A stretch of 64,000 nt of DNA from Octopus vulgaris (lineage: Eukaryota), in contig OX597838.1 of assembly GCA_951406725.2 (NCBI GenBank), positions 8,928,001 to 8,992,000 on the forward strand. The letters run 5' to 3'. How positions within the stretch are numbered: the first letter of the stretch is position 1; each line of letters begins with the position of its first letter. The translations under genes and the position numbers were made by a program. Below the pieces are notes generated by a model. The model was given only the letters and a program-made list of their open reading frames with translations, searched no databases and had not been told where the DNA came from. Positions 16,901 through 51,874 of this stretch are shown one piece after another.

Positions 16901-18947
16901 CTTTGTCCTATTTTTCTTTTTATCAACTGTAAATCAATGAAAAGTAGGGTCTTCTCCCTTAACGGGGGATTTTGAAGGACAACTGAAATACAACTTTTAC
17001 CACCGTATTGGTTTTATTAATTAATTCTGCTGATAATGAAAAGTTCAACTCCTCAATCCTACCCAATCTGCCAGTCATTACCTACTCTTCCCCAACCTCT
17101 GCCCAATGCATATTTATCATTGACCACCCCTCCACCCTTGTCGATCATTCGCTACAACCACCTGCAATCCATCATCCTCAATCATCACTCCTCCCTGATG
17201 CCCCTAAACTCTTCACTCATTCCCTTATCTCTAACGACTTCCTCTTGCAACTTATTCTGTCCCCGTTCACTTCTTATCGACTCCTTCTGCCTCGAGGGTC
17301 CAGTTTGATACCTCATCGCTATTTTGTCTTCTTTTCCAGCTGCAGCCCGGATACTTCCACCCTCTCTTCTGTAATGTGAGTAATCATGTAGGTCCTGGAC
17401 AATAAAAACACCTCTTGTATTCTGGTCCCTTCCTACATACTTTAATCTCTCATATCCTAACACAAAGTCGCCTCCTTCTCTACTGTATCCGCCACTCAGT
17501 TAAAAGGGATCTCTTCATCCAGTTTGCTAACAATTCTGCAGCTTGCCGCTTTAATAAAATAAGTAACAAATAGTAATAAGAGACTAATAATAAAGATAAT
17601 AAAAATAATGATAATAATAATAAAGATCATCATCATCATCATCATCATTTAGCGTCCGCTTTCCATGCTAGCATGGGTTGGACAGTTCAACTGGGGTCTG
17701 GGAAGCCAGAAGGCTGCACCAGGCCCAGTCTGATCTGGCAATGTTTCTACAGCTGGATGCCCTTCCTAATGCCAACCACTCCGTGAGTGTAGTGGCTGCT
17801 TTTTACGTGCCACCGGCACAGGTGCCAGACGGGGCTGGCAAACGGCCTCGGTCGGATGGTGCTTTTTATGTGCCAGACGGGGCTGGCAAAAGGTCATGGT
17901 CGGATGGTGCTTTTTACGTGTCACCGGCATGGGGGCCAGGCGAGGCTGGCAAACGGCCACGATCGGATGGTGCTTTTTATGTGCCAGACGGGGCTGGCAA
18001 AAGGCCATGGTCGGATGGTGCTTTTTACGTGTCACCGGCATGGGGGCCAGGCGAGGCTGGCAAACGGCCACGATCGGATGGTGCTTTTTACGTGCCACCG
18101 GAACAGGTGCCAGACGGGGCTGGCAAACGGCCATGGTTGGATGGTGCTTTTTACGTGCCAGACGGGGCTGGCAAACGGCCACGGTCGGATGGTGCTTTTT
18201 ACGTGCCACTGGCATGGGGGCCAGGCCAGGCTGGCAACGGCCACAATCGGATGGTGCTTTTTACATGCCACCGGCACGGAGACCAGTCGAATAAAAATAA
18301 TGATAATAATTCTTTCTGCTATAGACACAAGGCCCGAAATTTTAGCAGAAGGAACTCGGTGATTATATCGACCCCAGTGCTTGAATGGTATGTATTTTAA
18401 CCCATTCCAGTGTGCACAATGGACGTTGAAGAGAATGTTGATGATTTAACAAAACTTGACAGGATGAAAGGCAAAGTCACCCTCGGTGGAATTTTAACTC
18501 AGAACATAAAAAACAGACGAATTACTGCTAAGCGTTTTGCTCGGTGTGCTAACGGTTCTGCCAGCTTGCCATCTTAATAGTAGTAATGATGATGATGATG
18601 ATGCCAATTCACCTTCTCTAATTTTGTAATTGTAGGCCAGATTGATCATATTACGTGTTTCACCGAGTCACCTTACAATGTCGACAGATATCTGAAGGAC
18701 AAAAAGCATTGGGTATCTGAAGGTCTTGTATGTTACTGCTCTATTGCTACTACTGCTACCCGGGTACTTGGTTCAGTCTCAGTAATCTAATAGCAGGCTA
18801 AGTTTTATGGTGGGTGTATGTGTGTGTGGTGTGTTTTTATATATATATATATATATATATAAAAAAAAAAAATTTTTTATCTTCGGTTTTTTTTAAATAT
18901 GCTAGACCACTGGTTTTTAATTGATTAATATTAATTTCTACCCTTAT

Positions 18948-18979
<32 letters not shown>

Positions 18980-19502
18980 GTAATATATGAATATATATAT
19001 GTGTATATACATGTATATATCGTCATCATCATTTAGCGTCCGCTTTCCATGCTAGCATGGGTTGGACGGTTCAACTGGGGTCTGGGAAGCCAGAAGGCTG
19101 CACCAGGCCCAGTCTGATCTGGCAGTGTTTCTATGGCTGGATGCCCTTCCTAACGCCAACCACTCCGTGAGTGTAGCGGGTGCTTTTTACGTGCCACCCG
19201 CACAGGTGCCAGACGGAACTGGCAAACGCCCACAGATGGATGGTGGCATAGGCGAGGCTGGCAACGGCCACGAACGGATGGTGCTTTTTACGTGCTCCCG
19301 GCACAAGGCCAGTCGGGGCGGCGCTGGCAACGGCCATGAACAGATGGTGCTTTTTACGTGCCACCGGCACGGGGGCCAGGCGAGGCTGGCAACATGTATA
19401 CATGTATATATATATATATGTATATATATATATACATGTATATATATATATACATATATATATGTATATATACATATGTATATCTATGGATATATGTGTA
19501 TA

Positions 19503-21349: not shown

Positions 21350-22225
21350 GCAGAGTCTGTGGCACAGTGGTTGCTGAAAGTGACTCTGAACAAGAGCAGA
21401 GTCTGTGGTACTGTGGTTACTGAGAGTGACTCCGAACAAGAGCAGAGTCTGTGGTATTGTGGTTACTGAAAGTGACTCCGAACAAGAGCAGAGTCTGTGG
21501 CTACTGAAAGTGACTCTGAACAAGAGCAGAGTCTGTGGTACTGTGGTTACTGAGAGTGACTCCGAACAAGAGCAGAGTTTGTGGTATTGTGGTTACTGAA
21601 AGTGACTCCGAACAAGAGCAGAGTCTGTGGCTACTGAAAGTGACTCTGAACAAGAGCAGAGTCTGTGGTACTGTGGTTACTGAAAGTGACTCCAAACAAA
21701 AGCAGAGTCTGTGGTACTGTGGCTACTGAAAGTGACTCCGAACAAGAGCAGAGTCTGTGGTACTGTGGCTACTGAAAGTGACTCTGAACAAGAGCAGAGT
21801 CTGTGGTTACTGAAAGTGACTCCGAACAAGAGCAGAGTCTGTGGTTACTGAAAGTGACTCCGAACAAAAGCAGAGTCTGTGGTACTGTGGTTACTGAGAG
21901 TGACTCCGAACAAGAGCAGAGTCTGTGGTTACTGAGAGTGACTCCGAACAAGAGCAGAGTCTGTGGTTACTGAAAGTGACTCCGAACAAGAGCAGAGTCT
22001 GTGGTACTGTGGCTACTGAAAGTGACTCTGAACAAGAGCAGTCTGTGCTACTGTGGCTACTGAAAGTGACTCCGAACAAAAGCAGAGTCTATGGTACTGT
22101 GGTTATTGAAAGTGACTCTGAACAAGAGCAGAGTCTGTGGTACTGTGGTTACTGAAAGTGACTCCGAACAAGAGCAGAGTCTGTGGTACTGTGGCTACTG
22201 AAAGTGACTCCAAACAAGAGTAGAG
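21350..22225. repeat. Minisatellite, ~20 units of 46 and 38 bp (CTGAAAGTGACTCCGAACAAGAGCAGAGTCTGTGGTA[CTGTGGTTA])
   Basis: Read directly; a 46+46+38=130-bp higher-order period at the left end (ORFs at 21405 and 21535 are identical and 130 bp apart). Confidence 0.97.
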
Positions 22226-22999
22226 TTAACCTTGAAATGAGATCACCATGTAGTGCACATAAGGTTGTGATGCACCTGCCTGGTGTACCCTTATCAGACG
22301 GGTAGTCGTGATGGGTATACTGGGCTTCGTACATTTTACCCCAGTGTTACTTTGATGGCATGCACTGCTCTCTCACTCAATAATAATAGTAGTAGTAGTA
22401 GTAATAATAATCCAATAACATCGATGGAATTAGATAAAGGGACCTGTGGAAGACTTGAAGGAAGTGGTCTTGTAACGAAAAAAAAAAAAAAACGAAACAC
22501 GTGATATCATCACAGGAAAGTTTACAAATTATAAAATAGAAATGGAACAAAATAGTAAGTACATAAATTGAGTAATTTCGCATACACTCGAATGTCTACA
22601 CAATCATATATACATTTTGATACCCGTAGGACTACACATACATCTCAATGTTCAGACAACTACGTGAAATTTACAGGACACACATACACACGCATATGAA
22701 AATACGTGTCACAAACGAAGCAAAAACAAAAACAAAACATTTTTCTTTCGTTTTTTTTTCTTTATTTCTTTTCATTTTGTGAATTAACACAGTGAACCAT
22801 CCACAGGTTTAAAAACACCACCGAAAAAAACCCCAAAAAAACTATACTCCGAGATAAATCTATCAATAAAAAAAAAAAATACAGATGAATACTGATCTGT
22901 TAGCCTTAAGATGTCACGTTGCGAGTAATGTTTACATGCAGAGAACACGGAGACGGTGCTGTCTCAAAAAATTGACCGTAAATAGACAAATCTGTCCCC

Positions 23000-26230: not shown

Positions 26231-27824
26231 CCAAATTCGAAAAGAAAATCAAACTGGAGGAGTAGAATTGAAACTGAGATTGAATCATTGCGAAGGGAGG
26301 TATCAATATTAACTGAGCTGTTTGCTGGAAATGGTGTAAGATCAAGAAAAGGTAGGAAGATTGTGAGAAAATATGGATTCTCAACAAGAGAAGAACTAAT
26401 GTCAGCGAAAGAAACACTTAAACAAAATGTTCAAGCAAAAGCTCAGAAAATACGCAGATTTGAGAAAAGAATCAAATGCTACAAGCAAAATAAGATGTTC
26501 AAATCCGACGCCAAATCATTTTACAGGGAAATAGGGAAGGAAAAAAATAACCATTGAAAATCCACCCCTAATGGAAGAAGTTGAAGACTTTTGGAAGGGG
26601 ATCTGGAGTGATGAGAAACCATACAATGAAAATGCAGACTGGATCAAACGCACCCAAGATGCCTACAAAAATCTACAAGAACAGGTATGGGAAGACATCT
26701 CAATCGCCGACCTAAGGAGGGCACTAACGAAGGCTCATAAGTGGAAATCCCCTGGTATTGATAGAGAACCAAATTTCTGGCTCTCATCCCTCTTGTCCGC
26801 ACACAAAATCTTAGTAACACTATTTAATAGTATTATAAAAGACCCGGAAAAAACTCCCCATTGGATGGCAAATGGTATGTATTACTTACCTCCTCCCCAA
26901 AAATAACAAAACGAAAGACCCCAAAAACTACCGGCCTATAACATGTTTGTCTACTACCTATAAGATTTTGACATCTATTCTAGTAGAGAAAACATATACG
27001 TTTATGGAAGAGAATAACCTCTTTCCCACTGAACAAAAAGGATGCAGACGAGGCTCATACGGATGCAAAGATCAGCTCCTAATTAACCGCATGATCCTTG
27101 AGAACTGCCATAACAAGCGCAGAAATCTCAGGTCTTCATGGATTGATTATAAAAAAGCCTTTGACAGCATACCACATTCGTGGATTCTGAAATCGCTGGA
27201 CATTTTCAAAATTTCTCCTGTGATTTCAGATTTTTTAAAGTATAATATGTCACTATGGAACACGAAGCTCCAATTATGCCATTCTAATGGAGTATTGTGC
27301 TCAAACAATATTAGTATAAACTGTGGCATTTTCCAAGGTGACTCACTTTCAGCACTAATATTCTGCATAGCACTAATACCACTCTCAAGTGAACTGAATA
27401 GAACAGGGTATGGCTACAAAATTGACAACAGGAAAATAAGCCATCTATTTTATATGGATGATTTAAAACTATATGGCAAAGATGATGAAGAGCTTCAAGG
27501 ACAACTACATACTGTGAAAGGATTTAGTGATGATATCGGGATGGAGTTTGGCCTTGAAAAGTGTGCCAAAGCCACTTTTAAGAAAGGGAAATTGGTAAAG
27601 TCAAGTTCAATCGAATTAGATGTGGAAACAGTAATAAAGGAACTTGAGCAAGAACAAACCTATAAATACCTAGGAATAAATGAAGGCTCTGGTATCCAGC
27701 ATGCAAGCATGAAAGAGAAGTTTAGGAAGGAATGTTATAGAAGAGTTCGAGCAGTCCTGAAGTCTGAGCTGAATGCATATAATAAGATGTTAGCCATAAA
27801 TTCCTTAGCAGTTCCAGTTGTTCT
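26231..27824 (+). mobile_element. Dong/R4-type LINE B, 5' half (RT), interrupted at ..INSLAVPVV
   Basis: FWKGIW, WKSPGID, NYRPITCLSTTYK, GIFQGDSLS, FYMDDLKLY, YKYLGI; clearly different in sequence from fragment A. Confidence 0.9.
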
Positions 27825-28599
27825 TTAAAAGTTAAGTGAATCGTTCAACCTCGCTACGACTACCTTCTTTCTTGCACTTATCCTTACTCTTTCTCTATTC
27901 TTCAATTTCCATCTCATTGTATTGTCCCTCATTCTTTCAGTATTCCCTCATTACCCTGTCTAGCTCAAACATTTTTTTTCGTTTAGACTTGTCTCCAGGT
28001 TCATAGCCACTCTGATTTTTCAATTTTTCAATTTTTCGTTTAGTATTGTCTCCCGATTCATACAAACCCATTTGCTAGCTCACGATTAACAGAACCTCTT
28101 TACTCAGCTACGGTGTTATATTAGCTATCAATAATGATATTCCCTCTGATTTTTCTGATTTTCAAACCTATTTATCTAATGTTTATTTATCGACAATGCC
28201 GTCCCCAGTCAAATTCCCTCACACCGCTTATTGTCACGTGTCCCTTGACCTCTCTCTCTAACTAACCCTATCTCTCTCTCGCTATGTTCCCCCCTTCCCA
28301 TAACCATCATCGCCATGGTCCTCTATGCCCCCCCACTCCCCAAAACCATCATCGCCATACATAAAAGAGCGATCGCATTTATCGTTAACCCCACTCGCTT
28401 CAAAAATTTTGTTCTCGAGTTACTGTTCATTTGCGTTGTGAGAAATTGCTGCCTTCATTTAAGAGAGTTCGGATTGGTGCTACTATTGTTTGTGTTAACT
28501 GTTTTGAACAGTGCCCGTTGTAAAACGGTAATTTTCGCCCTACGGGGCAGAAAATTTGTATTAACTGTATTTTTGTTACCTTGGAGGTAATTTTTTGAA

Positions 28600-29998
28600 A
28601 TGGAGTTCGACTTGACGTCGAAGGAAGATTTTCCCGTGATGGGAAAAAGTGAAAATAAGGATAAACAAGTACCCAAACAGTCATTCTCGGCCGCGGTGGG
28701 CGGCGCCATGATGGATGTCGAATTCAAAATTGAACAGCTATACGAATTCAGGAATCTAGTAAAAGTGGAAGGAGGCGAGATAAGGCTTGTACCGCCGCAG
28801 GCAAAAGTACAAGAGATCAAAGAAAGAATTGTGATTTACAAGGTATACAGCTTCAAAGAAAAGAAGATAATGGATGTGAAAAACGAAATTGTCGAGAAGT
28901 GCCTGTCCCCGGTGTGGGACAAAATTCGTCATGTCGTGAGAGGTGCACGCAGTGCTACGGTCGAGGCGCACTTTGACACGGCAGAGGTGGCGAGAGAGGT
29001 GTCGTCGTTGACCCTTAAAAACGACGACATCATGCTGCTACCCTCGTACATGGGGAAGCGAACTGCAAAATTACTGGTAGAAGACATACCCAGAGGGTAC
29101 GACATCATGTGGGTAGCAGCGGCGGTCCTGCACAACATTGAACGTGAAATATCAATACTGCAGATGAGAAGGAAAGAGGTGGTAAGGTGGAAGGGTCAGA
29201 CCCTGGAGCTCCTAGTGCAGGCGGAGAACAAAATCCTGGAAAACCTGCCCGACAGAATCTTTAATGAGGACGGTACGTCCAATGAGAGTTTCGGTGGAGG
29301 GACGTAGACCCAGATGCTTCAAGTGTGGAGAGAAGGGTCACGTCCGATCCAACTGTATTAAAAAGAAAAAAACAGAAGAAGCGCCTCCTCAAAGTGTCCC
29401 CAACACTGAAGGGGAGGAAACAGGAAAAAACAACAAAAAGACGAAGACAAGTACGGAAACAAAAACGGACCAGACAGAACTAATGGACTACACACAAGTC
29501 ACCCATAAAAGAAAAAAAGATAATACCCAGGACTCCCCTCCCCAAACAAAGAAAAAAACAGCAAACACAGCAGACACACACATCAAGCAAATCCCCCAAC
29601 CCTACCCCCATGGCACTGTTTTCATTGGAAAACAGTTTGCCAAGCCCCTCCCCATAAAACAAGACATAAAAAAGTGCTTACTGAAAAACGAAAGAATAAT
29701 AGCTTTCGATGAGAAAAATGAAAAAGTATATAAGTGTTGCAAATTCTCAAGATTTGTACTGTACAGTAGAGCCACAGATGTAAAAGCAACCGCTCGCTTC
29801 GCCAAGGTAGGGGAGGACGAGTGGAAAGGAGGAGGTTCTTCAGGAACATCTGAGGAACCGTCTAATAAGAGACGTAACCAAAGAGGTTATGGAGGGCAAA
29901 CTAATAATAACCCCGGCAACCACACCCACCCAGAGCCCAGTGGCAACGCCGGTCAAGAGCCCTGCAGCAGCGGAAGAAGGGGAAGCAGGCAGACTTAA
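28600..29998 (+). CDS. Tx1-like ORF1 (gag-like, CCHC zinc knuckle), frameshifted near 29280
   Basis: ORFs 28600-29307 and 29264-29998 overlap in different frames; CFKCGEKGHVRSNC knuckle. Confidence 0.8.
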
Positions 29999-30054
29999 AC
30001 TGTCATGCTCCCTTTCACAACCGTGAGTACTTTTATGTTTCTCTCTCACCCACA

Positions 30055-33000
30055 ATGGCTAAGCTGGGTTGTATAAATGTACGTGGAATGGGGTCGAAAC
30101 GGAAACAAATTTGTTTCCTGAACGACCTCACAACACACGGTGTAGATATTGCTATTGCAACCGAGTCCAAGATGAGCGAGACCCAAGCGTTCTCGCCTCT
30201 TCTAAATGGTTTCGAGAAATTTATTTCTCCTAGCCGAGGAAGAGGCAGAGGCGTGGCAGTCTTCATCAGGAAGAGCTTGGACTTGCAGGTAAGTACTGTC
30301 TTTCTGGACCCAGAAGGCAGGCTGGTTGTCCTGGATGTGACTCACGTAAGTAAACAGTCCTTCAGGTTGGTAGCTGTCTACGCCCCGAACGAGGGTAGAC
30401 AGACGGGTTTTTTCGGAACCTGGAGCCCTTTTTAGCGACGTCGAAAACAGTAATCCTAGTAGGGGACTTTAACACTGTCCTTGAAGCGCACATCGACAAT
30501 GTTGGCTCAACCAATAGGAAGGGGAACCCTAGCCTCAAGGGTCTACTAGAGAGCTTTGATCTAGTGGACCGTTACCGACTGGATGAGCCGAGCGTTCCAC
30601 AGTGGACGTGGAGTAACAACGACGGCTCACACAGATCGTATCTAGATAGGATATTTATTAAGAAAAGAGATAAGGATACGTTTAGTTGTCCACAATTTCA
30701 TATTGTACCTTACTCGGATCACAAATTTGTGACGTGTGAGGTGCAATTAGACAAGTGTCATAGACAGGGACCCGGGTACTGGAAGCTGAACAAGGCTATT
30801 TTGAATTGTGAAGACTTCCGTACCCGGATTAAGGTGTTAGTTCAGAGGGCATTGTGTGGCACCATCATTAACAATAGATGGTGGCACGCCCTCAAAAGAG
30901 CCATTCGTTTAGAGTCCGTTAGATTTAGCAATCAGCTAAGGATAGATAGGGCTAGTCTAGAGGGCGATTTAGTTAAGAATCTAGACGAGGCAATGGAAGC
31001 TGGCTCTGCATCCGGAGTGTTGGCGGCAAGGACGGTATTGTACCGCCACCTTAACTCCAAACACGAAGGTTGCAGAGTCAGAGCTAAGCTGCGCGCTGGG
31101 AAACGAGAAGGTATTAACGTGGCCGGATGGGCCCGTCGTGTGGAGAGTCAGAGAGGCAACAGAGCCTCAATCAAATCTTTGACTGACGAACAGGGACAAA
31201 AGATCTATGGACAGGAGGAGATGCAAAAGTTTCTTCACCAGCATTTCGCTCGCGTGTTCGGGGGTGGTGGTTCGCTGGATCGGGGGAGGGCCTTAAAGGA
31301 CTTCCTAGCCGGCGGACCGCGGCTCGCGGGGCGTGAGGTGGAGTGCTGTGAAGGAGCGATCACTCCCGCGGAGATAAGGGAGATACTGGCCGGATGCGCC
31401 GGGGAGAAGTCGCCGGGGTTGGATGGTCTGCCCTACGAGTTTTACCAAAGTATGCCGGACTTGTTCGGGGGAATACTGGCGGGCGTCTACACGAACTGGC
31501 AGCAGAATGGGAGAATTCCCAGTTCTGTAAGCCGGGGAGTGGTGACGCTAATCCAGAAAGACCCGAGCAAGGGGGATAACATCAGTAACTACAGGCCCAT
31601 AACTCTACTTAATGTAGAGTTAAAGATTTTGGCCAAGGTGTTGGCAAAAAGGTTGACGGTTGTCGTGGAGAAACTTGTAGGGAGAGCACAGACATGTGCA
31701 ATTCCAGGCAGGTCGATCCAGGACAACCTTCACCTTATACGCTATACCTTAGATAGGGTGGGTAAATTAGCCGGCAAAGGCGGGGTAATGGTCCATTTAG
31801 ACCAAAGTAAAGCCTTCGATAGGGTAGACCATGGGTACCTGGCGACGGTCCTCGAAGCGGCTGGGCTGGGCCCTGAATTTCGCGGGTGGATCTCCGCTAT
31901 GTATAGCGGCATCAAGTCCACCGTCCAGATAAACGGTTACCTAACGGAACCGTTTTCGATCGAGTGTTCAGTGCGTCAGGGGTGCCCCTTGTCACCACTT
32001 TTGTACGTATTGGCTCTTGAGCCATTGCTGCGAAAGTTGGAGAGGCTGGGAGTAACTCGGATGAAATCGGAGGTGGGAGGACGGTTACTGCTTATGCGGA
32101 TGACGTCACCCTCATCGTGTCCAAAGAGGCCCAACTACCTTGTGTAGAGGAGGCTATCAGAGGATACGAGGCGGTGGCAGGAGCAAAGGTTAACAAGGAC
32201 AAATCGGTTGGCTTGCGCCTCGGCACCTGGAGGAGCAAGTCGATATCGTCCAGTGTCGTGGGACACTGGACGGATGGCCCTGTTAAGTTGCTGGGAGTTT
32301 GGTTCGGGCCAGACTCCCAAACGGAGAAGAACTGGAGTGAGGTGACAAGCAAGGTGGAAGCCATAGTACGGACCTGGTCCGGAAGGTTTCTGTCCTTGAA
32401 AGGAAAGGCGGAGGTGGTGCAGATGTTCATTGCATCTGTAATCACCTACCGCCTGACCGTTGTCCCTTGCCCCGATTCATGGCTTAACAAGTTGGAGCGA
32501 ATCCTTTTCCGCTTTTTGTGGAAAGGAGGAAGGCCACTTGTGAGGCGCTCCGTTTGCTGCCAGGAACCGTTAAAGGGTGGGTTAGGAATGCCTTGGTTGA
32601 TGATGCGCAGACATGCGTTGAGGCTAAGGCATCTCTGGCACCACCTGGAGGGTGATAAGGTGTGGAGTCCGCTGGCAGGGGGATTTTTCCCGAGACCGGC
32701 CTCCTTAGTGAATTTTAAACCCGGTTACATCAAAAGATGGAAACTGACTCCATGGCAAAAGGAGTGCCGACAGGCGCTCACGCTGATCCACAAGGCGGGC
32801 AAGGCCGGCTGCGGAAATACCACCTCGGTATTTTATAGAGGGCTGGTAGAGGCAAAAACGACGACGTCCTAGGAGGGGCTCTGGGGTTTGATGAAGACCA
32901 GCTTGCCAACCTGTTTAAAAAACTTTCAGGTCGGGGTATTTGGATAATTTCCAAAGATCCCTGGCCTGGCAGTGCTATAGGAATGCTTTACCTGTTCGCG

Positions 33001-33440
33001 AGAAGTTATCGCGGCACGGAGTTTCAGTGCCACCGACGTGTCCAAGGTGCGAGTTGGACGATGAAACCGTCCAGCACGCTTTTGTTCACTGTCGGAAGTT
33101 GTCCGACTTGATAAGTTACGCAGAACACGTGTTATCGCATCTGGGACGAGTACAGCTGTCGGCTGAGTCTATGATTAAGATGATACCGCCAACTGGACTC
33201 TCGAAGGAAGGTGAGGCATGTTTTCACTGCACGGTTGCAGTAATAAAGGAATGCATGTGGAGAACGAGAATGGAAGGAGCCACGATAGGATCCTTTGTCT
33301 CCGGCCCCAGCTTGCTCACTTACTTCAGATATCATCTGAAGAGCAAAATGGGGCTGGAAAAGAGGATCTTACCGCGGGGTGTGTATGAGAAAAGATGGAA
33401 GGAAGTGGAAAGAAAGGTGGGTGTCAGAAACCCAGCTTGA
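30055..33440 (+). CDS. Tx1-like ORF2 (APE endonuclease + reverse transcriptase + C-terminal zinc finger), split by ~3 frameshifts
   Basis: GCINVRG..ATES (APE N-terminus), LVGDFN, SYLDRIF, YSDH, GPGYWKLN, KSPGLDGLP, NYRPITLLN, LDQSKAFDRV, VRQGCPLSP, AYADDV at ~32091, CPRC..ETVQHAFVHC. Confidence 0.9.
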
Positions 33441-35222
33441 CCATGGAGGAGAGAGAGGAAGTGGAAGCTGCAGGGCCTCATAAATTGCCGGGGTGTAAAA
33501 ACTCCAGTGAGACTACAAGTTCATCTACTGTTGTTTGTTATACTGGTTATGCAAAGGATATTATTTTATAATGAATCTAAACAAAATTTTTAATCGAATC
33601 TCTTAAATGTTTTTTGTATGTATGTCCTGTATTTGTCCTTCTGTGTATCGATTTTCATAATCATAATAAAGAAATACCCACTCGCTTCAAAATATCTAAA
33701 GACGAAATACGCACAGATCATGATTGGCTAAAGCTAAGTGAATTGTTCAACCTCGCTACGACTACCTTCTATCTTGCACTTATCTTTATTCTTTCACTAT
33801 TCTTCAATTTCCATCTCATTGTATTGTCCCTCATTCTTTCAGTATTCCCTCATTACCCTGTCTAGCTCAAACATTTTTTTCGTTTAGACTTGTCTCCAGG
33901 TTCATAGCCACTCTGATTTTTCAATTTTCAATTTTTCGTTTAGTTTTTCCCGATTCAACCCCATTTGCTAGCTCACGATTAACAGAACCTCTTTACTAAG
34001 CTACGATGTTATATTAGCTATCAATAATGATTATTCCCTCTGATTTTTCTGATTTTCAAACCTATTTATCTAATGTTTATTTATCGACAATGCCGTCCCC
34101 AGTCAAATTCCCTCACACCGCTTATTGTCACGTGTCCCTTGACCTCTCTCTAACTAACCCTATCTCTCTCTCGCTATGTTCCCCCCTTCCCATAACCATC
34201 ATCGCCATGGTCCTCTATGCCCCCCCCCCACTCCCCAAAACCATCATCGCCATACATAAAAGAGCGATCGCATTTATCGTTAACCCCACTCGCTTCAAAA
34301 TATCTAAAGAATACGCACAGATCATGAATGGCTAAAAGTTAAGTGAATCGTTCAACCTCGCTACGACTACCTTCTTTCTTGCACTTATCCTTACTCTTTC
34401 TCTATTCTTCAATTTCCATCTCATTGTATTGTCCCTCATTCTTTCAGTATTCCCTCATTACCCTGTCTAGCTCAAACATTTTTTTTCGTTTAGACTTGTC
34501 TCCAGGTTCATAGCCACTCTGATTTTTCAATTTTTCAATTTTTCGTTTAGTATTGTCTCCCGATTCATACAAACCCATTTGCTAGCTCACGATTAACAGA
34601 ACCTCTTTACTAAGCTACGATGTTATATTAGCTATCAATAATGATTATTCCCTCTGATTTTTCTGAAAACCTATTTATCTAATGTTTATTTATCGACAAT
34701 GCCGTCCCCAGTCAATTTCCTCACACCGCTTTATTGTCACGTGTCCCTTGACCTCTCTCTAACTAACCCTATCTCTCCTCTTTCTCTATGTCCCCCTCTT
34801 CCCATAACCATCATCGCCATATCTCTCTCTATGTTTCTCCCCCCCCTTCCCAAAACCATCATCGCCATATATAAAAGAGCGATCGCATTTATCGTTAACC
34901 CCACTCGCTTCAAAATATCTAAAGAAAATACGCACAGATCATGATTGGCTAAAGTTAAGTGAATTGTTCAACCTCGCTACGACTACCTTCTATCTTGCAC
35001 TTATCTTTACTTCTTTCACTATTCTTCAATTTCCATCTCATTGTATTGTTCCTCATTCTTTCAGTATTCCCTCATTACCCTGTCTAGCTCAAACATTTTT
35101 TTTCGTTTAGTCTTGTCTCCAGGTTCATAGCCACTCTGATTTTTCAATTTTTCGTTTAGTATTGTCTCATTCATACCCATTTGCTAGCTCCGATTTAACA
35201 GAACCTTTACTCACCTACGGTG

Positions 35223-38200
35223 CACCCGCCCCCCACCCCCACCACACATGCCGGAAGTTCCTATTCTCTTCCATTCCGGGGTTGCTTCCCATGAAGACTG
35301 CAAATGCTCTCACCATCCCTACCCCTCCCTACCCCTAGTCTCGACCTATGTAAGGTAATGTTCATACAGTGCAAAATATGAAAGGCTAGCGTTATGCAGG
35401 TTGTACTGAAGGCTACTTTACTACTTCATTTCTTGCACATGAATTCTGCCAAATGCGAGCTTTCTTTTCAGGTACACGAAGCTACTGTCCACCGTCCCAG
35501 GGTCTCTAGAGCCCATGCCTTCCCACACCCTCAGGGTTGGCACCCTCAACGTTGGCACTCTGAAAGGTAGGTCTGGTGAGATAGTCGAGATGCTTGAACG
35601 GAGATGTGTGGATATATGTTGCATGCAAGAAATAAGGTGGAGAGGAGGATCAGCTAGGTTCCTCACAGGCAAGGAACGCAGGTACAAGATTTTCTGGGCA
35701 GGGAACACTGACGGGGTTGGTGGCGTGGGTATACTTATCGCTGAGAAATGGGTAGATAAAGTAATTGAGGTAATCAGAGTATGTGACAGAATACTTAAGA
35801 TTAGATTAGTGCTTCATCATAGTTTAGCAACCATTATATCAGCCTATGCTCCTCAGTCGGGGCTACCCGATGGACAGAAAGACCGATTCTATGACACTCT
35901 ACTGCAGACTACCTCGTTGACGAACGACAGAGACCTTATCTTTGTGGCTGGTGACTTCAATGGTCACGTTGGACGACATGCTGGGGGCTTCCATGGCGTA
36001 CATGGAGGCTATGGCTATGGCTCCCGCAACGAGGAGGGAACCAGGCTGCTGGAGTTCTGCGATGCAAATAATCTTATGATTTGCAACACTAACTTCAGGA
36101 AACCTACCAGCCACCTAGTCACTTACCAATCGGGCCAACATACCAGCCAAATTGACTACATCCTTGCAAGGCAAAGGGAGAGATGGCTGCTTATAAATGC
36201 CAAAACCTTCCCAGGTGAAGAATGTACCCCACAACATAGACTGGTAGTTAGTGACTTTAGGATCAGGACTAGGAGGACAACCAGAAGACGACCAATATGG
36301 AGAAGAAGGATCTGGAAGCTTAAAGATCCTGCAAATGGACAGAGATTTAGGACATATTACTTGAAGCCTCTGACGAAGTAGAAGGGGATAGAGCATCACA
36401 GGGGGTAGAAGACAGCTGGACGTTTCTAAGGGACAACCTGCTGAGAGCCACTGACCAGATCTGTGGCTGGTGCAAAGTCCCCTCTCGACCTAGAATAACG
36501 TGGTGGTGGAACAATATTGTAGACAGGGCTATTAGAGAAAAGAGACAGGCTTGGAAGGTCTGGAAAAATGGGGGTAGCAGGGAATTGTATCAGACTGCCA
36601 AAAGAGAAGCTAAGGAGACAGGTTTATTTAGCCAGAGGGGAAGCAGATAAGAAAAAATTTGCCAATGTTCTGCGCCGTGAGGACCAAAGACTGGAGGTGT
36701 TTCGTGTTGCAAGACAGTGTGTGAGAGAGAATCGTGATGTGGTAGGAGAGAAGTGTGTTCGCATGGAAGATGGTTCACTTGCGCTAAATGAGGATGCAAA
36801 GAGAGAGGTTTGGAGATGCCACTATGAAAGTTGCTGAATGAAGAAAATGAATGGGATAAAGAGAGTCTGCCGAATGTTGACCCAACAGAGGGACCAGCTA
36901 TCCGAGTTGATAGTTCTGTGGTAGCTAAGGCAATTAGAAGCATGAAGACAGGAAAAGCCCCAGGCCCATCAGGAATCACTGCAGAGATGCTCAAAATGTC
37001 TGGTAGTGTCGGCTATAGCCTAGTCACCCATATAGTTAATCAGGTGATACACAAAGGGTCATACCCAATGACTGGTGTAGCAGTATAATAGTCAACTGCT
37101 ACAAAGGTAAAGGTGATGCCCTAGATACAAATAACTACAGAGGTATCAAGCTGTTGGACCAGGTGATGAAGGTTACGGAGAGGGTCATAGCCCAACTAAT
37201 TAGAGAGAGAGTTAGTTTAGATGAGATGCAGTTTGGGTTTGTGCCAGGGAAAAGTACTACTGATGCTATATTCCTGGTAAGGCAGCTGCAGGAGAAATAC
37301 CTAGCCAAAGATAAGCCCCTGTACCTGGCTTTTGTTGACATGGAGAAAGCCTTCGACAGGGTCCCCCGATCCCTTATCTGGTGGGCAATGAGAAAACTAG
37401 GGATAGATGAATGGTTAGTGAGAGCTGTGCGGGCCATGTATAGGGACGCCGCTAGTAGGGTGAGGGTTGGAAATGAGTACAGTGAAGAATTCCGGGTAGA
37501 GGTAGGGGTCCACCAAGGCTCAGTACTCAGCCCCCTCCTATTTATCATAGTCCTCCAGGCAATAACGGAGGAATTCAAGACAGGATGCCCTTGGGAGCTC
37601 CTCTATGCTGATGACCTTGCTCTAATTGCTGAGTCGCTATCAGAACTGGAGGAGAAGTTTCAGGTGTGGAAACAAGGATTAGAATCGAAGGGCCTCAGAG
37701 TCAATCTAGCTAAAACCAAAGTCGTAATCAGTAGGAAGGTAGACAAATCACAAACACCTTCAGGTAGATGGCCCTGCTCGATCTGTAGAAAAGGTGTAGG
37801 TAGAAACTCTATAAGATGCACCAAGTGTAAGCTATGGACACATAAGAGATGCAGCAATGTCAAAGGAAGGCTAACTAGGAAGATGGTTTTTGTATGTGGC
37901 AGATGCTCAGGAACAATAAACACTGAAAATGCTCTGAGACCAACTTCTGTCACTTTCCAGGGAGAAAAACTAGAAATAGTTGATAGTTTCCGTTACCTAG
38001 GTGACCAAGTCAGCAGCGGGGGCGGGTGTGCTGAAAGTGTAACTGCTAGAGTAAGAATAGCTTGGGCAAAGTTCAGAGAGCTCTTACCTCTGCTGGTGAC
38101 AAAAGGCCTCTCGCACAGAGTGAAAGGCAGACTGTATGATGCGTGTGTACGAACAGCCATGCTACATGGCAGTGAAACATGGGCCGTGACTGCTGAGGAT

Positions 38201-39158
38201 ATGCGTAAGCTCGCTAGAAATGAAGCCAGTATGCTCCGATGGATGTGTAATGCCAGTACTCACACTCGGCAGAGTGTAAGTACCTTGAGAGAAAAGCTGG
38301 ACCTAAGAAGCATCAGTTGTGGTGTGCAAGAGAGACGTTTGCGCTGGTATGGTCATGTGGCGAGAATGGATGAAGATAGTTGTGTGAAAAAGTGCCACAC
38401 CCTAGCGGTTGAGGGAACCTGTGGAAGAGGCAGACCCAGGAAAACCTGGGACGAGGTGGTGAAGCACGACCTTCGAACTTTAGGTCTCACCGAGGAAATG
38501 ACTAGAGACCGAGACCTCTGGAAGTGTGCTGTGCGCGAGAAGACCCGGCAGGACAAGTGAGTCCACAACCCGTGGCCTTCTACATGGGATGGAGCCAGCC
38601 TACGTATGCATACCTTCCCTTCTTGGGACACAAAACTCTACTTGTGAAGACGTGTTGAGGCAAGTGAGGATCAGAATGGAAATTGCGGATGTGCTACCAG
38701 TGCCGGTGGCATGTCGAAACTCTGCTTGTGAAGACCCATTGAGGCAAGTGAGGATCAGAATCGAAATCGATCAATGGAAATCGATCAATGGAAATTGCAG
38801 ATGTGTTACCAGTGCCGGTGGCATGTAAGAGAACCTTCCGTTTCGCGACCGTTGCCAGCACCGCCCCGTTTCGTGTTCGTTGCCAGCCTCGCCTGGCCCT
38901 CGTGCCGGTGGCACATAAAAAACACCATCCGTTCGTGGCCGTTTGCCAGCTCTGGCTGGCACCAGTGCGGGTGGCACGTAAAAAGCACCCACTACACTCA
39001 CGGAGTGGTTGGCGTTAGGAAGGGCATCCAGCCGTAGAAACACTGCCAGATTTGACTGGGCCTGATGAAGCCTTCTGGCTTCACAGACCCCAGCAGAACC
39101 GTCCAACCCATGCTAGCATGGAAAACGGACGCTAAATGATGATGATGATGATGATGAT
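35223..39158 (+). mobile_element. Near full-length RTE-clade LINE (single APE+RT ORF ~35515-38560 with ~4 frameshifts, ~600-nt 3'UTR, (GAT)n tail)
   Basis: LRVGTLNVGTL..QEIRW, AGDFNGHVG, SQIDYIL, KAPGPSG, QFGFVPGKSTTD, FVDMEKAFDRV, GVHQGSVLSP, YADDL (37604), FRYLG, RRLRWYGHVARM, RGRPRKTW; ends in gatgatgat at 39138-39158. Confidence 0.93.
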
Positions 39159-40380
39159 GTGCTTAACTGGAATACCAGTGAAATAATGAAATTGACAGAA
39201 AAATCCACAAGCTACTGACTTGTAATAAGATGCACCATTCAAAGGCAGACGTGGATCATTTTACCTTTCCAGAGCTCAGGGAGGTCGAGGCTTGATCAAG
39301 CTTGAACTTAAGTACAAAACCACCACAATCAGACTGGCCAAATACCTTGAAACAACCAACGATTGGATGCTAAATCTTGTTGAAAAACATGAAAGACCGA
39401 AAAAACTTCACTCTATTCTGAAAGAGAGCAAAAAATTTGCTACTGATCTCTTAGATACCCACCAGATTGATCAGGTTGAAGGAAATGTGCCAACTGCTGC
39501 TGCAAAGAAAATAAAATTAATTGCAAAGATAAAAGCACATGAAAAATTAGCTAGCAGATGGGAACAGAAACCTCTGCATGGCAAGTATGTGGCCCGTAGC
39601 AAAAAAGCTGATGTCGACCAGAAACACACGCACCAATGGTTACGAAGCTCAGGGCTAAAAGCAGAGAGTGAAGGTTTCATATTAGCTGCTCAAGACCAAA
39701 GCTTATTAACCCGGAACTACCAAGCTAATGTGATTAAAAAATGGAGCTGACCCAAAATGCCGATTCTGTAACGATGAGATTGAAACTATAGACCACCTAA
39801 TCTCAGGGTGGAGAGTCTTAACACCTGTAGAATATAAAGCAAGACATGACAGAGTCGGCCAGTATTTACACTGGACAATATGTCGGCATTATAAAATCAA
39901 AACCACTGACAAATGGTATAAACACCATCCTGAAGCTGTGACTGAGGGAGAAAATGTGTCGATTCTATGGGACTTCCTCGTACAGACCGACAAGACTATA
40001 AAAGCTAATAAACCGGATATTATTATAAAAGATCAGACAAAAAGGATGTGTTTATTAATTGACATGAGTATTCCCTGTGACCACAATATAGCGGCGAAAG
40101 AATTTGACAAGATTAGTAAATATAAAGACCTGCTAATAGAAATTGAAAAAACGTGGCATCTCAAGGCAACTACAGTACCAGTGATTGTGGGATCTCAGGG
40201 AATGATAAAAAAAGGTACTGAAACCTATTTGAAAATGATACCAGGCTTACCATCCCTACAGGAAGTACAAAAAATCGTGTTAACTGGAACGGCTCATGTA
40301 CTGAGAAGAGCATTATCGCTGTGAAAACAACATCCATTCATGAATTTATTTATTTATTAATTTTTTTAAATCCATATTTT
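39159..40380 (+). mobile_element. Dong/R4-type LINE B, 3' half with CCHC and PD-(D/E)xK restriction-like endonuclease
   Basis: Resumes VLNW..IDRK..MHHSKADVD, then ESEGFILAAQDQ, CRFC..ETIDHLISG, NKPDIII..IDMSIP..KISKYKDL, LTGTAHVLRRALSL stop. Confidence 0.88.
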
Positions 40381-45271: not shown

Positions 45272-48200
45272 ATCATCATCATCATTTAGTGTTTATTTTC
45301 CATGTTGGCATGGGATAGCTGGTTTGGCTGGAACTGGAAAGATGGAGAGCTGCAGCAGGCTCCAATCTTACACACACACACACACTCATATATTTATACA
45401 TTTGCATGCATATACAAAAGTACATGAAGCTAGATATGCACACACACACACACACGAACACAGACTGTACACAAAAATCTTGTTAAGATGAGAAAGAAAA
45501 CGAACCTTGTGTTTCTCAAATCTCTTGGATTTATCCATCTTGAAAGGGGATTTCGATGAAAACAAGGCGATATAACCTCCTTGACTCTGGGCAAGGAATG
45601 TATTCTCCCTGGGGTGTTGGCAAAGTCGGGCACATATATATTTCTCCTGCAAATTGAAACATCAAATGTAATGAAGTAACATGTAAGTAAGAAATGTCAT
45701 TTGTATTGATTTAGGTTAAGAAATTACATCATCATCAATATTTAAGGTCCACTTTCCCATGCGTGCAGGGGTTGGAGGGAGTTTACTGAGGCAGATTATG
45801 CTAGGGCTTAATGCCCATTCTGTCACCAACCTTTACCTGTGCTAGTGGGGTGCCAAGAGTCACATCCGAGCGTGATCGTTGCCAGAGCAGCCAACCGGCT
45901 TCCGTGCCGGTGGCACGTAAAAGGGCACCATTCGAGCGTGATCGTTACCAACATCGCCTTACTGGCACCTGTGCCGGTGGCATGTGTAAAAAAGATTCGA
46001 GTGAGGTCATTGCCAGTACTGCCTGACTGGCCCCATGCCAGTCACATGTAAAAAGCACCCACTACACTCTCGGAGTGGTTGGCATCAGGAAGGGCATCCA
46101 GCTGTAGAAACTCTGCCAGATCAAGATTGGAGTCTGGTGCGGCCATCTGGTTCGCCAGCCCTCAGTCAAAATCGTCCAACCCATGCTAGCATGGAAAGCG
46201 GACGTTAAACGATGATGATGATGATATCATAATTAATCTTAAAAACAAAGAATGCAGTACGTACATGGTAAATCTGATTTGAGAGAACAACCCCAGTCTG
46301 ACAATGCCATGCCATTATATTTCGGTCAGCTGAATCTTGACTGATGATATCACAGCAGCTGAAGAATGTCTCTCCATCACGTGAGAACACAATGTCCTGT
46401 ATCTGGGATGGAACAGCAGCAATGGGAAGAAAATGGCAAAAAAGATTAGAAGCTAATAAAAAACGGTACAAGATCAATACAAACAAATACGAGTAATTAA
46501 TGCAGCAACCATGTTGCTTGTTAATGAATCCTCCTCATCATTTAACGTCCGTTTCCCATGCTGGCATGAGTTGGATGGTTTAAATGAAAGCTGATAGGCT
46601 GGGGAACTGCACCAGGTTCCAATCTGATTTGGCATGGTTTCTACAGCTGGATGCCCTTCCTAATACCTATTTCTTTACTACCCACTAAAGGGGCTAAACA
46701 CAGAAGGGACAAATAAGGACAGACAAACGGATTAGGTCGATTATATTGATCCCAGTGCGTAACTGGTACTTATTTAATCGACCCCAAAAGGATGAAAGGC
46801 AAAGTCGACCTCGGCGGAAATTGAACTCAGAACGTAACGGCAGACGAAATACGGCCACGCATTTCGCCCGGCGTGCTAACGTTTCTGCCAGCTCGCCGCC
46901 CTAATACCAACCACTCCAAGAGTGTAGTGGGATGCATTTTATGTGGCACCAGCACGGGTGCCAGTTACGTAACACTAGCATCGACCACAACTACGACTCC
47001 ACTTGGCTTGACGGATCTTCTCAAGCAGGGTGTATTACCAAAGATCTTGGCCACTTGTCGCTGACACCCAACATTCAAAGGGTGCCTTTTATGAAAAATC
47101 AATTTGTGATTTCGTCCCCCTTGCCCTTCTCTTCCCATTCTTTCTTCTGTTTACTTTTTGTATCTTGAGGGTTCACACTGGCATCTTGCCATCACCATCT
47201 TTCTCTCCCTCTCCAGCTACTCTCAATGTGGAGTAGCTATGTATCTCCTCTACAGCAAGGAACCCATTCTGCCCCTCTATCATATTTCAGCCATTCAACA
47301 GCTGGCATAAAACCCAGCCCCATGGCTTTACTACACTTCCACCTAAGCTGAAGGGGCTTATTTTTTTTCTTTTGCCTTGCAAGTTACTGGGTGACTTCAT
47401 TTCGAGCTGGCCTGGTCAGTGTTAAGAAAGACATCCAGCTGTAGAGACCGTGCTGAAGCTTAACTGGAGCTCGATGTAGTCCGATAACTTGTTGGATCCT
47501 GTCGAATCATCCAACCCAAGCCAACATGTAACAGAGACATTAAATGATGATGATGATGGTGGTAATGAGGAGGATGCCAAACACGAACATCCTGCCTATC
47601 ATCATCATCATCATCTAACGTCTGTTCTCCATGCTAGCATGGGTTGGACGCTTCAACCGGGGATCTGGGAAGCCAGAAGGCTGCACCAGGCTCCAGTCTT
47701 ATCAGTCAATGTTTCTACAGCTGGATGCCCTTCCTAACGCCAACCACTCCGTGAGTGTAGTGGGTGCTTTTTACGTGCCACCTGCACAGGTGCCAGGCGA
47801 GGCTGGCAACGGCCACGGTCGGATTGGTGTATTTTATGTGCCACCGGCACAGAAGCCAGTCGAGGCGGCGCTGGCATCGGCCACGAGTCGGATAGTGCTT
47901 TACGTACCACCAGACCAGGGATCCTGGCTGGTTCAATTCGATTTCGCTTGCCCCAACATGTCTTCGCAAGCAAAGGGGGTTGGCATGGGTGCCTGTCGTA
48001 CGGTCGGATTGGTGTATTTTACGTGCCACTGGCACCTTTTAGCAATATCTAGAATTACATTATCTAACATGTTTTTTCTTCATTTACAGCAGTAACAGCC
48101 AGCTGCTCTACAAAGTGGTTGGTGTTAAAAAAGGGCATCCGGCCAGAGAAAATCTACTGCCATGAATTTCATCTCGCCCATGCAAGCACAGAACAGTGGA

Positions 48201-51200
48201 CATTATATATTTCTTTACTACCCACAAGGGGCTAAACACAGAGGGGACAAACGGATTAAGTCGATTATATCGGCCCCAGTGCGTAACTGGTACTTAATTT
48301 ATCGATCCCGAAAGGATGAAAGGCAAAGTCGACCTCGGCGGAATTTGAACCCGGAACGTAACGGCAGACGAAATACGGCTACGCATTTCGCCCAGCGTGC
48401 TAACGTTTCTGCCAGCTCGCCGTGGACATTATAATGATGATAATGATGATGATGATAACTAAGAACACGGAATGATATTCTTATCTATTCTTCAGTTCTG
48501 TTCTGCACAAACCTCTCTGTGCACCCAAATGAAATATCAGGAAAGAGAGTGCAGTTAAGTTAGGTTATAAATTGTTCTGATGATAAGATATCCTTCCCAA
48601 CACAAACATTTGTGAATTGAAGTGACAAAGCAGAGCTTAATATCACACAAAGCTTCCCATCCCATTCACACTAAATTAGAAAAGAGATGAAACTATAGGA
48701 CAGCAAAGATCATGATTGTGCTGTTGTGATTATAATAATAATCATCATCATCATTTAGCGTCCGCTTTCCATGCTAGCATGGGTTGGACGGTTCAACTGG
48801 GGTCTGTGAAGCCGGAAGGCTTCATCAGGCCCAGTCTTATCTGGCAGTGTTTCTACGGCTGGATGCCCTTCCTAACGCCAACCACTCCGTGAGTGTAGTG
48901 GGTGCTTTTTACGTGCCACCCGCATAGGTGCCAGACGGAGCTGGCAAACGGCCACAAATGGATGGTGCTTTTATGTGCCACTGGCACCGGACACGAACGG
49001 ATGGTGCTTTTACGTGCCACCGGCACGGAGGCCAGTCGGGGCGGCGCTGGCAACGGCCACGAACGGATGGTGCTTTTTATGTGCCACCGGCACGTGATTT
49101 TATAATAATGAGGTTGTGATAAGGTTTACTAACTTACAGTTCCGAGGCTGTCTTTGTAGTTGTACTGTCTCACTGGTTCTTGGGCAGTTCTGAGGTCCCA
49201 GGAGTAAACGACATTTTTGGTGCCAGTCAACACCAGGTTGGCATTGACTGGGTGGTAGCGAGCACATGGCACAATCTCGTGGTGGGAAAGGGTTTGTAAA
49301 GCAGATCCTGTGCATGAAGATGGTAGCATTAATTAGGCTTTCTGGAAGAGTCTGGTTTTGGGCACTGTAAACGTCTCAACCCTTTCACTGCAAAATTAAA
49401 TTTCATGATCATTCCAGTAAAGATGCTAAATATCTACCCAAAAATACAACTGGTATTTTCTGCTTCAATAAAATTAACACATCTCAATGAATTATAGTTT
49501 CAAACACAACCATTCCTTAACAAAAGACAGAATGGGATATAAAACTGCTTTCTGTGGCTAAGAATTATTACATTTTGAACAGATATATCTGATTTCCGCA
49601 GTAAAAGGGTTAAGTAATGATAGCAACAGTGATGAGAATGATTACACTAATGATACACTAATAACATTCCTTATTCTCTCATCATTATAATGTCCACCAT
49701 CATCATTTAGCATCCGTTTTCTTTGTTGGCATCTCTCTATATAAAAAGCACCATCCTGAACGTGGCCAATGCCAGCGCCGCCTTGGCTAGCTTCCGTACC
49801 AGTGGTCATTCAAAGCTCCAACTGATCGTGGCCGATGCCGGACCCCCACTGGCACCTGTGTAGGTGGCACGTAAAAAGCACCCACTACACTCACGGAGTG
49901 GTTGGTGTTAGGAAGAGCAACCAGCTGTAGAAACTCTGCCAGATCAGATTGGAGCCTGGTGCAGCCCCTGGCTTCCCAGACCCCGGTCGAACCGTCCAAC
50001 CCGTGCTAGCGCGGAAAACGGACGTTAAACGATGATGATGATGAATTTTAACTCTTTAACTGTGAAATTAAATTTCATGGTTATTCCAGTAATGATGTTA
50101 AACATCTCCCAAAAATAGAATCGGTATTTTCTGGTAGTCAGACTGCTTCAATAAAATTGACAAATTTCAATAGAAAATGGTTTCAAATATGACATTCCTC
50201 GACAAAAGACAGAATGGTGTATAAGACTGCTTTCTGCAATTAAGGGAAATGAAATTTTGAATGGATGTATGTGATCCCTGCAGTAAAAGGGTCAAATACA
50301 CAGGAGACAGGCCGATGTGGTTGGCTGGGTTAGTAACAAAAGGGTTAAGCACACAGCTGTTGTCTCCAAATCTGTAAAATAAAATTAATAACTCACCTGT
50401 CTCTACATCCGTAACAACAGCTTTCCGATCGTAGCCACAGGTGAGCACATGACGGCCACAGCTACTCCATTCCGCATCTTTAACACAACTAGAATGATGT
50501 GTAACTGTCTGGACACACGGTTCCAAAAGCGACCAAACGTTCCATATTTTAACTAGAGAGTCATCTGCCACCGATAGCAGGAGATGACTGTACTGAGCGA
50601 CACACCACCGAATACGGTTAATGCTGCCCACATGAGCTTGAATTGTAGTCTCTTTCTTCTTGGCTATTTGATTTGGGCCAGGGAAGGCTTTCGATTGGTA
50701 TGGACCAATTTTACTGTGAACAAAATAAAGTTTCCGCTTGGTTTGCATCGAATTAATTCCAGGTAAACTTTCAGATGTTGTTCCACGATTCTCGCTTTTA
50801 TGAAGTCTTTGCTTCTTGCTTGTATAAGCCTTGACACAAGACGATTCTTGTAAATCAGGCACCAACGCTTTACTAGACATCGATGCTTCTTGTTCGGGAG
50901 CCGTTAATTCTTCTTCTTCTTCATCAAACGGTGTAATTATAGTTTCAGAATCAGTAACATTTTTAAGAAAATGTTCTTTCAACTTCCCTGGATTTGCGAT
51001 TTCTTCTTCAGAAATACCTTTCCAGAAATCCACAGACGGTAAAGAGACGCTGCTTCCGTCATGATTTATAACAAAATCAGACACAGTTTTTTGAGGACTT
51101 TTATACCATAAATTCGTTGTGTCAGCAGCTGAACTAGTTTTCCCCTCCCTCTTGTTTCCTTCTTCTTCATCATCATCATCATTTAAAGCAAAGAAGTTAA

Positions 51201-51294: not shown

Positions 51295-51874
51295 CGATAG
51301 CTGCAAAGAAAAAAAAACAAGAATCTATACATAAAAATGAATATTGAACACATACATCATCATCCTCACCAACACTTAATGCCTATGGTCTATGCTGGAG
51401 TGGGTTGGATGGAGCAAAGGGCTCTGATGGGTCCAAGGACTGCACCCTGTTTTAATGTCTGCTTTGGCATGGTTTCTATGACTGGGGCCCCTTCCTAATG
51501 TCAACCACTTCACAGCATGCACTGGTTACTTTTTTGTGCCACCAGCACAAAAAAAAAAATGATAATAAAATAAAGAAAATCAAAATAATAAATAAATAAA
51601 TGAAAACAAAAGGTAAAATAACGTAGAAAAGAAAAGAAAAATACCTTTCAGATGGCGTGGTTTCCGTTTATATCGAAATTTAATGTGACTTACATATTGA
51701 CATACACACACACATATATAAATACATATACAAAGATAACTAAGGCCGGTCTATGGGAATACTGTGGGAATACCGTGCATAAAGCGCTTAGTTTTGCAAC
51801 GTTATCATCAGACCCCAAAACCTCGTGAGCACATGGCCGGCCCCCCCCCTCTCTCTCTCATTCTACACACACAC

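Follow-up and report, generated by a model that had tools for sequence, protein, structure and literature searches.

Tandem units at the 5' end of an octopus RTE-type LINE: most likely a renewable promoter

Introduction

A long interspersed nuclear element (LINE) that is copied from RNA loses any promoter that lies upstream of its start. How an element might nonetheless keep a promoter is the question raised by a stretch of 64,000 nucleotides of Octopus vulgaris DNA (GenBank assembly GCA_951406725.2, contig OX597838.1, positions 8,928,001 to 8,992,000, forward strand), here called the window, in which an RTE-type LINE carries tandem units of about 610 bp at its 5' end. A preliminary description took these units for promoter monomers. 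I argue that the array is real, that it belongs to the RTE and that it is most likely a renewable promoter, a reading to which I give roughly four chances in five. Other loci are named below by contig number (C) and position in Mb; the window lies on C25.

Arrays of this kind have been described in rodents. In mouse and rat L1, tandem 5' monomers are joined to the coding sequence by a tether of about 250 bp (PMC5381506). In mouse L1 the number of monomers reaches 50, a common truncation site has been read as the start site, and growth by unequal crossing-over has been proposed; Zhou and Smith present the array as a special feature of mouse L1 whose maintenance is unclear (PMC6454616).

Results

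The array and the RTE are one element

Physically and genetically, array and RTE belong together, and the two move as one element. A DNA search with one unit, in which 22 of 197 candidates were scored, gave 106 matches in 19 loci. All 18 arrays outside the window end at one and the same position of the unit, followed by an RTE body that shares about 99% identity with the window copy (in one of the 18 an insertion of about 890 bp sits at the unit/RTE junction). An exact 35-base pattern taken from the unit matched 154 times, against 0 for a control. The 100 matches listed fall into 29 loci, and an RTE follows in 29 of 29; of the other 54, about 50 belong, by arithmetic, to three arrays already examined. 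The open reading frames (ORFs) that follow the 18 arrays and the 29 pattern loci are 97-99.7% identical. The arrays have a polarity: their 3' junction is fixed and their 5' ends are ragged, bordering unrelated DNA.

Units found mostly in free-standing arrays would, by the preliminary description, have refuted its reading; no such array was found among the 18 loci of the DNA search or the 29 listed for the exact pattern. On those counts, 0/18 and 0/29 loci with an array apart from the RTE, independent satellite DNA was rejected. A long terminal repeat element was also rejected, the unit never being found at the 3' end: no locus that was mapped has a monomer match 3' of the RTE body.

The linkage can equally be followed from the RTE side. 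A search with the unique 5' untranslated region (UTR) between array and ORF, here called the tether, was scored for the best 40 of 878 candidates. Unit sequence lies directly upstream of all 40, over spans from 39 bp to 24.8 kb (~41 units), and 28 of the 40 5' ends extend more than 370 bp upstream, beyond the nearest TATA box. A sample picked without regard to score was made of the first 30 of 144 pattern matches, taken in order of position. It holds 14 copies of the 610-bp family, all with unit sequence, and 16 sister-subfamily copies, in which a homologous unit is ~70-78% identical where aligned and the shortest extension is ~20 bp. RTE copies beginning at the equivalent of window position 35223, which would likewise have counted against the preliminary reading, are absent from both sets (0/40 best matches, 0/30 position-ordered matches).

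Unit and RTE are also inherited together. Distances between proximal units follow distances between reverse transcriptase (RT) regions 1.5-3.3 kb away (Mantel rho 0.70, permutation p=0.0002) over 45 of 53 loci, namely those with at least 290 bp of unit, minus one with the junction insertion.

The window copy

The block in the window interrupts a LINE, presumably of the Dong/R4 type (Table 1). Among 11 other Dong copies, the empty site reads AVPVVLYSFNVLNW or a one-base variant in 10, and the remaining copy has a deletion of its own. Because 10 of 11 show this sequence intact, the RTE junction in the window must have lost 8-12 bp of its target; the junction has microhomologies, and target duplication is absent. 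The loss agrees with the "about four codons" that the preliminary description found missing from Dong. Its view of the whole 11.3-kb block as a single retrotransposition does not hold. The block is two nested insertions, because a Tx1/L1-like element with a 16-bp duplication splits the distal monomer, and 5.27 kb (28406-33676) are this separate element. Without it, the RTE and its array come to ~6.05 kb.

Table 1. The interrupted host LINE and the nested elements of the block, in window coordinates
Feature	Position	Strand	Remarks
Host Dong/R4-type LINE, left part	26535..27825	+	RVT_1 E=4.6e-29; empty site from 11 other copies
Distal monomer, 5'-truncated at unit position +49; E-box 28233, TATA 28358	27826..28405	+	3' end is the first Tx1 duplication copy (28390-28405)
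Nested 5271-bp Tx1/L1-like LINE	28406..33676	+	30 bp after monomer TATA box
Monomer, beginning with second Tx1 duplication copy (33677-33692); E-box 34127, TATA 34253	33677..34284	+	
Full monomer, inferred start site 34285; E-box 34736, TATA 34868	34285..34899	+	
Proximal partial monomer, inferred start site 34900	34900..35222	+	Ends at family-wide fixed junction
Unique 5' UTR ("tether"), GC-box-like run and CCGGAAGT	35223..35393	+	Both motifs also in sister subfamilies
RTE-type single ORF (endonuclease, RT with PHD-like insert), in pieces here	35394..38560	+	
RTE 3' UTR and (GAT)7 tail, tail end 39158	38561..39158	+	Last ~350 bp recur in the window as short elements
Host Dong/R4-type LINE, right part	39159..40324	+	

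The motifs first noticed in the units are present where they were placed: the E-box GTCACGTG at 28233, TATA-like boxes at 28358 and 34868, and CCACTC about 33 nt later; an additional TATA-like box lies at 34253. The start of the block, put at about 45 nt past the initiator, measures +49 relative to the inferred start site. The inverted NF-Y sequence TGATTGGCT does occur at 33721 and 34942; as a feature of the unit it fails, since ATTGG is found in 2 of 169 units and 164 read GAATGG, which makes it a local variant.

Over the 169 units of 53 loci, the E-box is present in 168, the TATA pattern in 146 and CCACTC in 156. The unit has 40% GC. Neither AATAAA nor ATTAAA occurs in it, and a unit without a poly(A) signal fits read-through. 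Rfam gave no match in 33600-35600 at E<=1. A frame of three codons, ATG-NNN-(G/A)GC-TAA, begins about 40 nt past the inferred start and is kept in all four of the diverged unit types introduced below; in the window it lies at 33720-33731, 34324-34335 and 34941-34952.

Sequencing runs bear on the unit as follows. Contigs of 4 of 24 listed runs, guessed to be RNA and placed on 34630-36200, cover the unit in all 4; they are not used here as evidence. Such contigs show neither starts nor strand, and the picture would be the same if DNA of a multicopy unit had been carried over. In a control placement with the same four runs, depth was 3-6 over most of one exon in 3 of 4, and several unique bins had little or no cover. 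A splice from the unit to an AG ahead of the ORF appeared in no contig joint, and the idea was dropped because that AG lies within the ORF of intact copies.

The RTE body

The RTE has a single ORF, with an AP-type endonuclease (Exo_endo_phos) and an RT (RVT_1), and no gag-like ORF1. It is at least 1000 codons long in 25 of 53 copies (the longest 1055 aa), and some of the breaks in the others may be assembly errors. The ORFs of the 53 copies differ by 0.6% on average, as in a young family. The best 120 homologues are proteins of ~1050 aa with the same domains, and none of them bears a clade name. A (GAT)n tail ends 52 of 53 loci, that is, all those whose 3' end was located. By this architecture, a single ORF and a short-repeat tail, features that mark members of the clade, the carrier of the array is assigned to RTE as its probable clade.

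A target duplication other than microsatellite sequence accompanies 1 of 52 insertions. At 22 of 52, a (TA)n microsatellite flanks the RTE on both sides. Just past the RT, at about 37775-37905 in the window, lies a PHD-finger-like insert (E=1.6e-4) common to many of the ~1050-aa homologues. The tether holds an ATG followed immediately by TAA or TAG (35349-35354 in the window), kept upstream of the ORF in sister subfamilies. Short elements that match the last ~350 bp of the RTE stand on the opposite strand at 15093-15455, 17626-17986, 19019-19373, 47598-47911, 48729-49094 and 59142-59532; they are presumably either truncated RTE copies or short interspersed nuclear elements mobilised by the RTE.

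Sister subfamilies carry other units

Three sister subfamilies, with ORFs 82-97% identical, carry arrays of other units, of ~500 bp, ~950 bp and ~560-850 bp. Where the 5' ORF is 82-85% identical, units measure ~500-520 bp in arrays of up to ~16, and in 12 of 13 arrays the last unit is followed directly by the ORF, the 13th ORF lying beyond the fetched flank. The subfamily that is ~91% identical has the ~950-bp units, with an ORF seen after 14 of 16 arrays and out of range at one. Direct repeats of 560-850 bp were found in 6 of the 16 sister copies of the position-ordered sample. By BLAST, neither the ~500-bp nor the ~950-bp unit matches the 610-bp unit significantly (best E 0.018). All four unit types place a TATA-like box ~30 bp before a pyrimidine-rich stretch. 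Just past the junction, the GC-box-like run and CCGGAAGT are kept in all subfamilies seen.

A second LINE lies about 30 bp past a TATA box at 12 of 25 loci

The element nested in the window array, probably of the Tx1 type, is 5271 bp long and flanked by a 16-bp duplication (28390-28405 and 33677-33692). Its ORF1 has zf-CCHC and its ORF2, here in several pieces, Exo_endo_phos, RVT_1 and zf-RVT. Copies like it have target duplications of 13-17 bp. A search with the 3' junction gave 393 candidates, of which 40 were scored. The 5' flank is readable at 25 loci, a set that excludes three 5'-truncated copies and a fourth copy with its 5' flank out of reach. In 12 of the 25, covering 6 of 9 target types, the duplication starts 30 bp (+/-2) downstream of a TATA box, counted from the first base of the box. 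Four of the 12 lie in the 610-bp unit, four in the 500-bp unit, one in the 950-bp unit and three in unrelated single-copy sequence. The position occupied in the window's unit is also occupied at C9:77.64, C6:114.84 and C7:109.07 Mb. Scored by a simple matrix made for this analysis, the TATA at -30 is the highest-scoring window of the 400-bp upstream stretch in 9 of 13 rows. A 6-bp deletion lies between TATA and site in the target at C14:37.12 Mb; the start of the duplication shifts 6 bp along, and the 30-bp distance is kept.

Duplications ~30 bp past a TATA box in unrelated Tx1 targets were noted at C2:134.45, C4:112.47, C9:59.20, C14:37.12 and C7:109.68 Mb. In at least 11 loci, among them C9:58.63, C7:112.94, C11:29.50, C20:27.11 and C27:38.31 Mb, a non-coding repeat of ~1.2 kb contains a Tx1-like element, always at the same position, and a short stretch in the downstream half of the repeat resembles the start of Tx1 ORF1. 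At the loci L192 and L130 (C2:182.80 Mb), Tx1 is inserted at a CTCTTCCTTT motif, after which comes GT, an arrangement like the first exon of what I presume to be a TCT-promoter gene; the insertion possibly lies at the start of a host gene. Genes for small nuclear RNAs were considered as the Tx1 targets and rejected: in 13 Tx1-flank loci Rfam gave one U2 match, ~1.5 kb from the insertion.

Indirect evidence for a probable promoter in each unit

Three indirect lines of evidence, the Tx1 footprint, the TATA spacing and the profile of RTE 5' ends, suggest that the units likely each hold a TATA-type RNA polymerase II promoter. The footprint of a separate LINE likely marks, independently, the TATA box and initiator of the unit as a real core promoter. 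The insertion site of Tx1 can also be used to set +1 of the unit. So numbered, of 59 RTE 5' ends 14 lie in the first 60 nt past +1 and one in the last 60 nt ahead of it; the first 11 nt hold 5 (p=0.004 against a uniform spread). The E-box, kept in 168 of 169 units, and the lack of a poly(A) signal add to these lines. Most copies that extend as far as the 5' UTR, moreover, include sequence upstream of the nearest TATA box, from which it follows that their template RNA began further up.

Probable growth of the arrays in place

Arrays of more than one unit likely regrow in place, by unequal exchange or slippage, because variants are private to loci and a multi-unit pattern recurs. Unit divergence averages 0.15% within a locus and 0.78% between loci (averages that omit the array at C9:18.76 Mb). 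Of 28 shared unit variants, 11 are confined to a single locus, as in 13 of 13 units at C9:18.76 Mb, an array that this analysis includes, or in 16 of 40 units on C22. A pattern of two units returns every 10-11 units in the ~41-unit array on C22; the array on C3 lacks a 1.3-kb stretch in the sequence examined. Since 27 of 53 RTE copies are longer than one unit, these hold a direct repeat that is able to expand. Growth in place is tempered by loci whose units are identical to those of other loci.

Other features of the window

A minisatellite with a 46-bp unit occupies 21350-22226 (~20 copies, with higher-order periods of 84 and 130 bp). Judged from their translations, an exon at 6766-7074 (+) resembles an interferon-regulatory-factor DNA-binding domain and one at 50167-51324 (-) a WD-repeat protein.

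Discussion

Several observations weigh against the reading of the array as a promoter that travels with the RTE and marks its start for Tx1. Each unit contains 8 ATGs, and the translation of RNAs begun in distal units is unexplained. Duplications at 1 of 52 insertions could not demonstrate joint mobility of array and RTE, and 1 of the 16 ~950-bp arrays has no RTE ORF within 1.4 kb. In the two unit types that can be aligned, the core is not better conserved than the rest (60-72% identity in bins from -60 to +20, against 65-78% in bins from -260 to -180). The 5' ends form an equal second cluster (14/59) at unit positions ~357-416, so that their support for the start site is moderate; other 11-nt windows of the unit also reach 5 ends, and the profile may in part stem from microhomology to AT-rich targets. 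As for Tx1, 13 of the 25 loci have no TATA at -30 (11 of them in the one 1.2-kb repeat, 2 at unique sites, one of which is pyrimidine-rich in the manner of a TCT start), the site at C7:109.07 Mb is off by 1-2 bp, and the RTE targets are partly alike around the site, so sequence recognition may contribute to its choice.

What else might the units be? They might be a repeat carried along, with the working promoter in the GC-box/CCGGAAGT motifs of the unique 5' UTR or supplied by host read-through. It suits this idea that the tether motifs persist in every subfamily seen while the units turn over, and that 22/52 insertions have (TA)n on both sides. Such a promoter is nevertheless improbable, for no copy starts at the junction in either sample (0/40, 0/30), the upstream units must have been within the RNA to be copied at all, and Tx1 comes to rest at TATA+30 of units whose TATA spacing is kept in four types. 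It is far less probable still that the unit is an independent satellite lying beside RTE insertions, or that the long arrays are artefacts of assembly. One could point to arrays of ~41 units, to differences in unit length that lie mostly in error-prone homopolymer runs, and to the scoring of 22 among 197 candidates in the DNA search; this explanation is already largely refuted by the polarity of the arrays (fixed 3' junction, ragged 5' ends in unrelated flanks), the co-inheritance of unit and ORF variants, the interruption of the Dong ORF by array and RTE together, and the lack of any orphan array among the 29 listed loci.

A different doubt accepts the units as promoters and concerns the upkeep of the arrays, which might depend on template jumps that append units 5' during reverse transcription, or on parents with long arrays, and not on expansion at the DNA level. 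Both routes have been discussed for mouse L1 by Zhou and Smith (PMC6454616), and units identical across loci would be expected from them (the distance to the nearest locus is 0.0-0.1% for several arrays). Private variants have spread through long arrays, multi-unit patterns recur, and arrays of 11-25 kb would require RNAs of 15-29 kb to be copied whole, all of which makes these routes unlikely, a little more so than a promoter in the tether.

I return to the array as a renewable promoter. Each unit would start RNA ~30 bp after its TATA box. If RNA begins in the k-th unit, the daughter would inherit at most k-1 working promoters, the promoter that was used being lost. Protein may come from RNA begun at the nearest unit and act in trans on longer RNAs, though this is a guess. 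The nested Tx1 element is likely promoterless and would borrow the promoter behind which it lands; it may home to start sites by position, in the sense direction, and in doing so would have split the distal unit of the window copy. Its duplication would recreate the target site, which would account for the head-to-tail tandems of up to ~10 copies that the family forms. The RTE would keep working by way of its downstream units unless Tx1 hits the nearest start, as at C7:109.07 Mb. More broadly, and with odds that I put somewhat short of even, I propose that the RTE LINEs of this genome independently evolved arrays of TATA promoters, renewable like those of rodent L1 and exchanged between subfamilies, that a promoterless Tx1 finds RNA polymerase II starts by position, probably through the complex of the TATA-binding protein (TBP), and parasitises both the arrays and host promoters, and that spare units buffer the RTE against it.

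The octopus RTE resembles rodent L1 (L1Md A, Gf and Tf, and rat with its ~650-bp monomer) in its tandem units, its tether, its variable unit number and the replacement of units between families, and it may share a common truncation point and growth by unequal crossing-over. It differs in its carrier, a single-ORF RTE-type element with a (GAT)n tail and duplications at 1/52 insertions, and in its unit, which at 40% GC, with TATA and E-box, is unlike the rodent monomers, described as CpG islands with YY1 or AP-1 sites. Membership in rodent L1 was rejected on these grounds (one ORF, no poly(A) tail, 1/52 duplications, 40% GC). An RTE of Octopus vulgaris has been described, RTE-2_OV, with a single ORF of 1109 aa and a microsatellite 3' UTR; the main text of that paper uses neither "tandem" nor "monomer" (PMC9115989). 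The array-bearing family is likewise a single-ORF RTE-type LINE in octopus. The two are not identical, since 4 of 4 RTE-2_OV primers tried mismatch at 5-7 of 18-20 bases.

For the nested Tx1, the nearest model is TRE5-A of Dictyostelium, which inserts ~50 bp ahead of genes transcribed by polymerase III and has an ORF1 protein that binds TBP in vitro (PMC5391098, PMC5006619). The octopus element may likewise insert at a set distance from a promoter element; it would differ in lying, sense-oriented, where polymerase II promoters of the TATA type presumably start. With target-specific Tx1-clade LINEs such as Keno, Kibi and Koshi it shares two ORFs, duplications of 13-17 bp, tandems around one duplication and preferred multicopy targets. 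Theirs are described as chosen by endonuclease sequence specificity (PMC4494074), whereas the octopus element is found in unrelated sequences at a fixed distance from a TATA box in 12 of 25 loci. Neither 5' monomer arrays on RTE elements nor a LINE aimed at TATA+30 came up in the literature, in a search that did not extend to Repbase, Dfam, most subscription papers and supplements.

A second case of a 5' monomer array, in another LINE clade, makes the renewal of arrays and the turnover of promoters directly testable, because a single genome offers young copies with 0 to ~41 units and at least four unit types. The nested element, for its part, may direct itself to polymerase II start sites by position. 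If that is true, its insertions would mark promoters and would disrupt host genes at their first base, and the element would provide a natural mechanism for targeting promoters.

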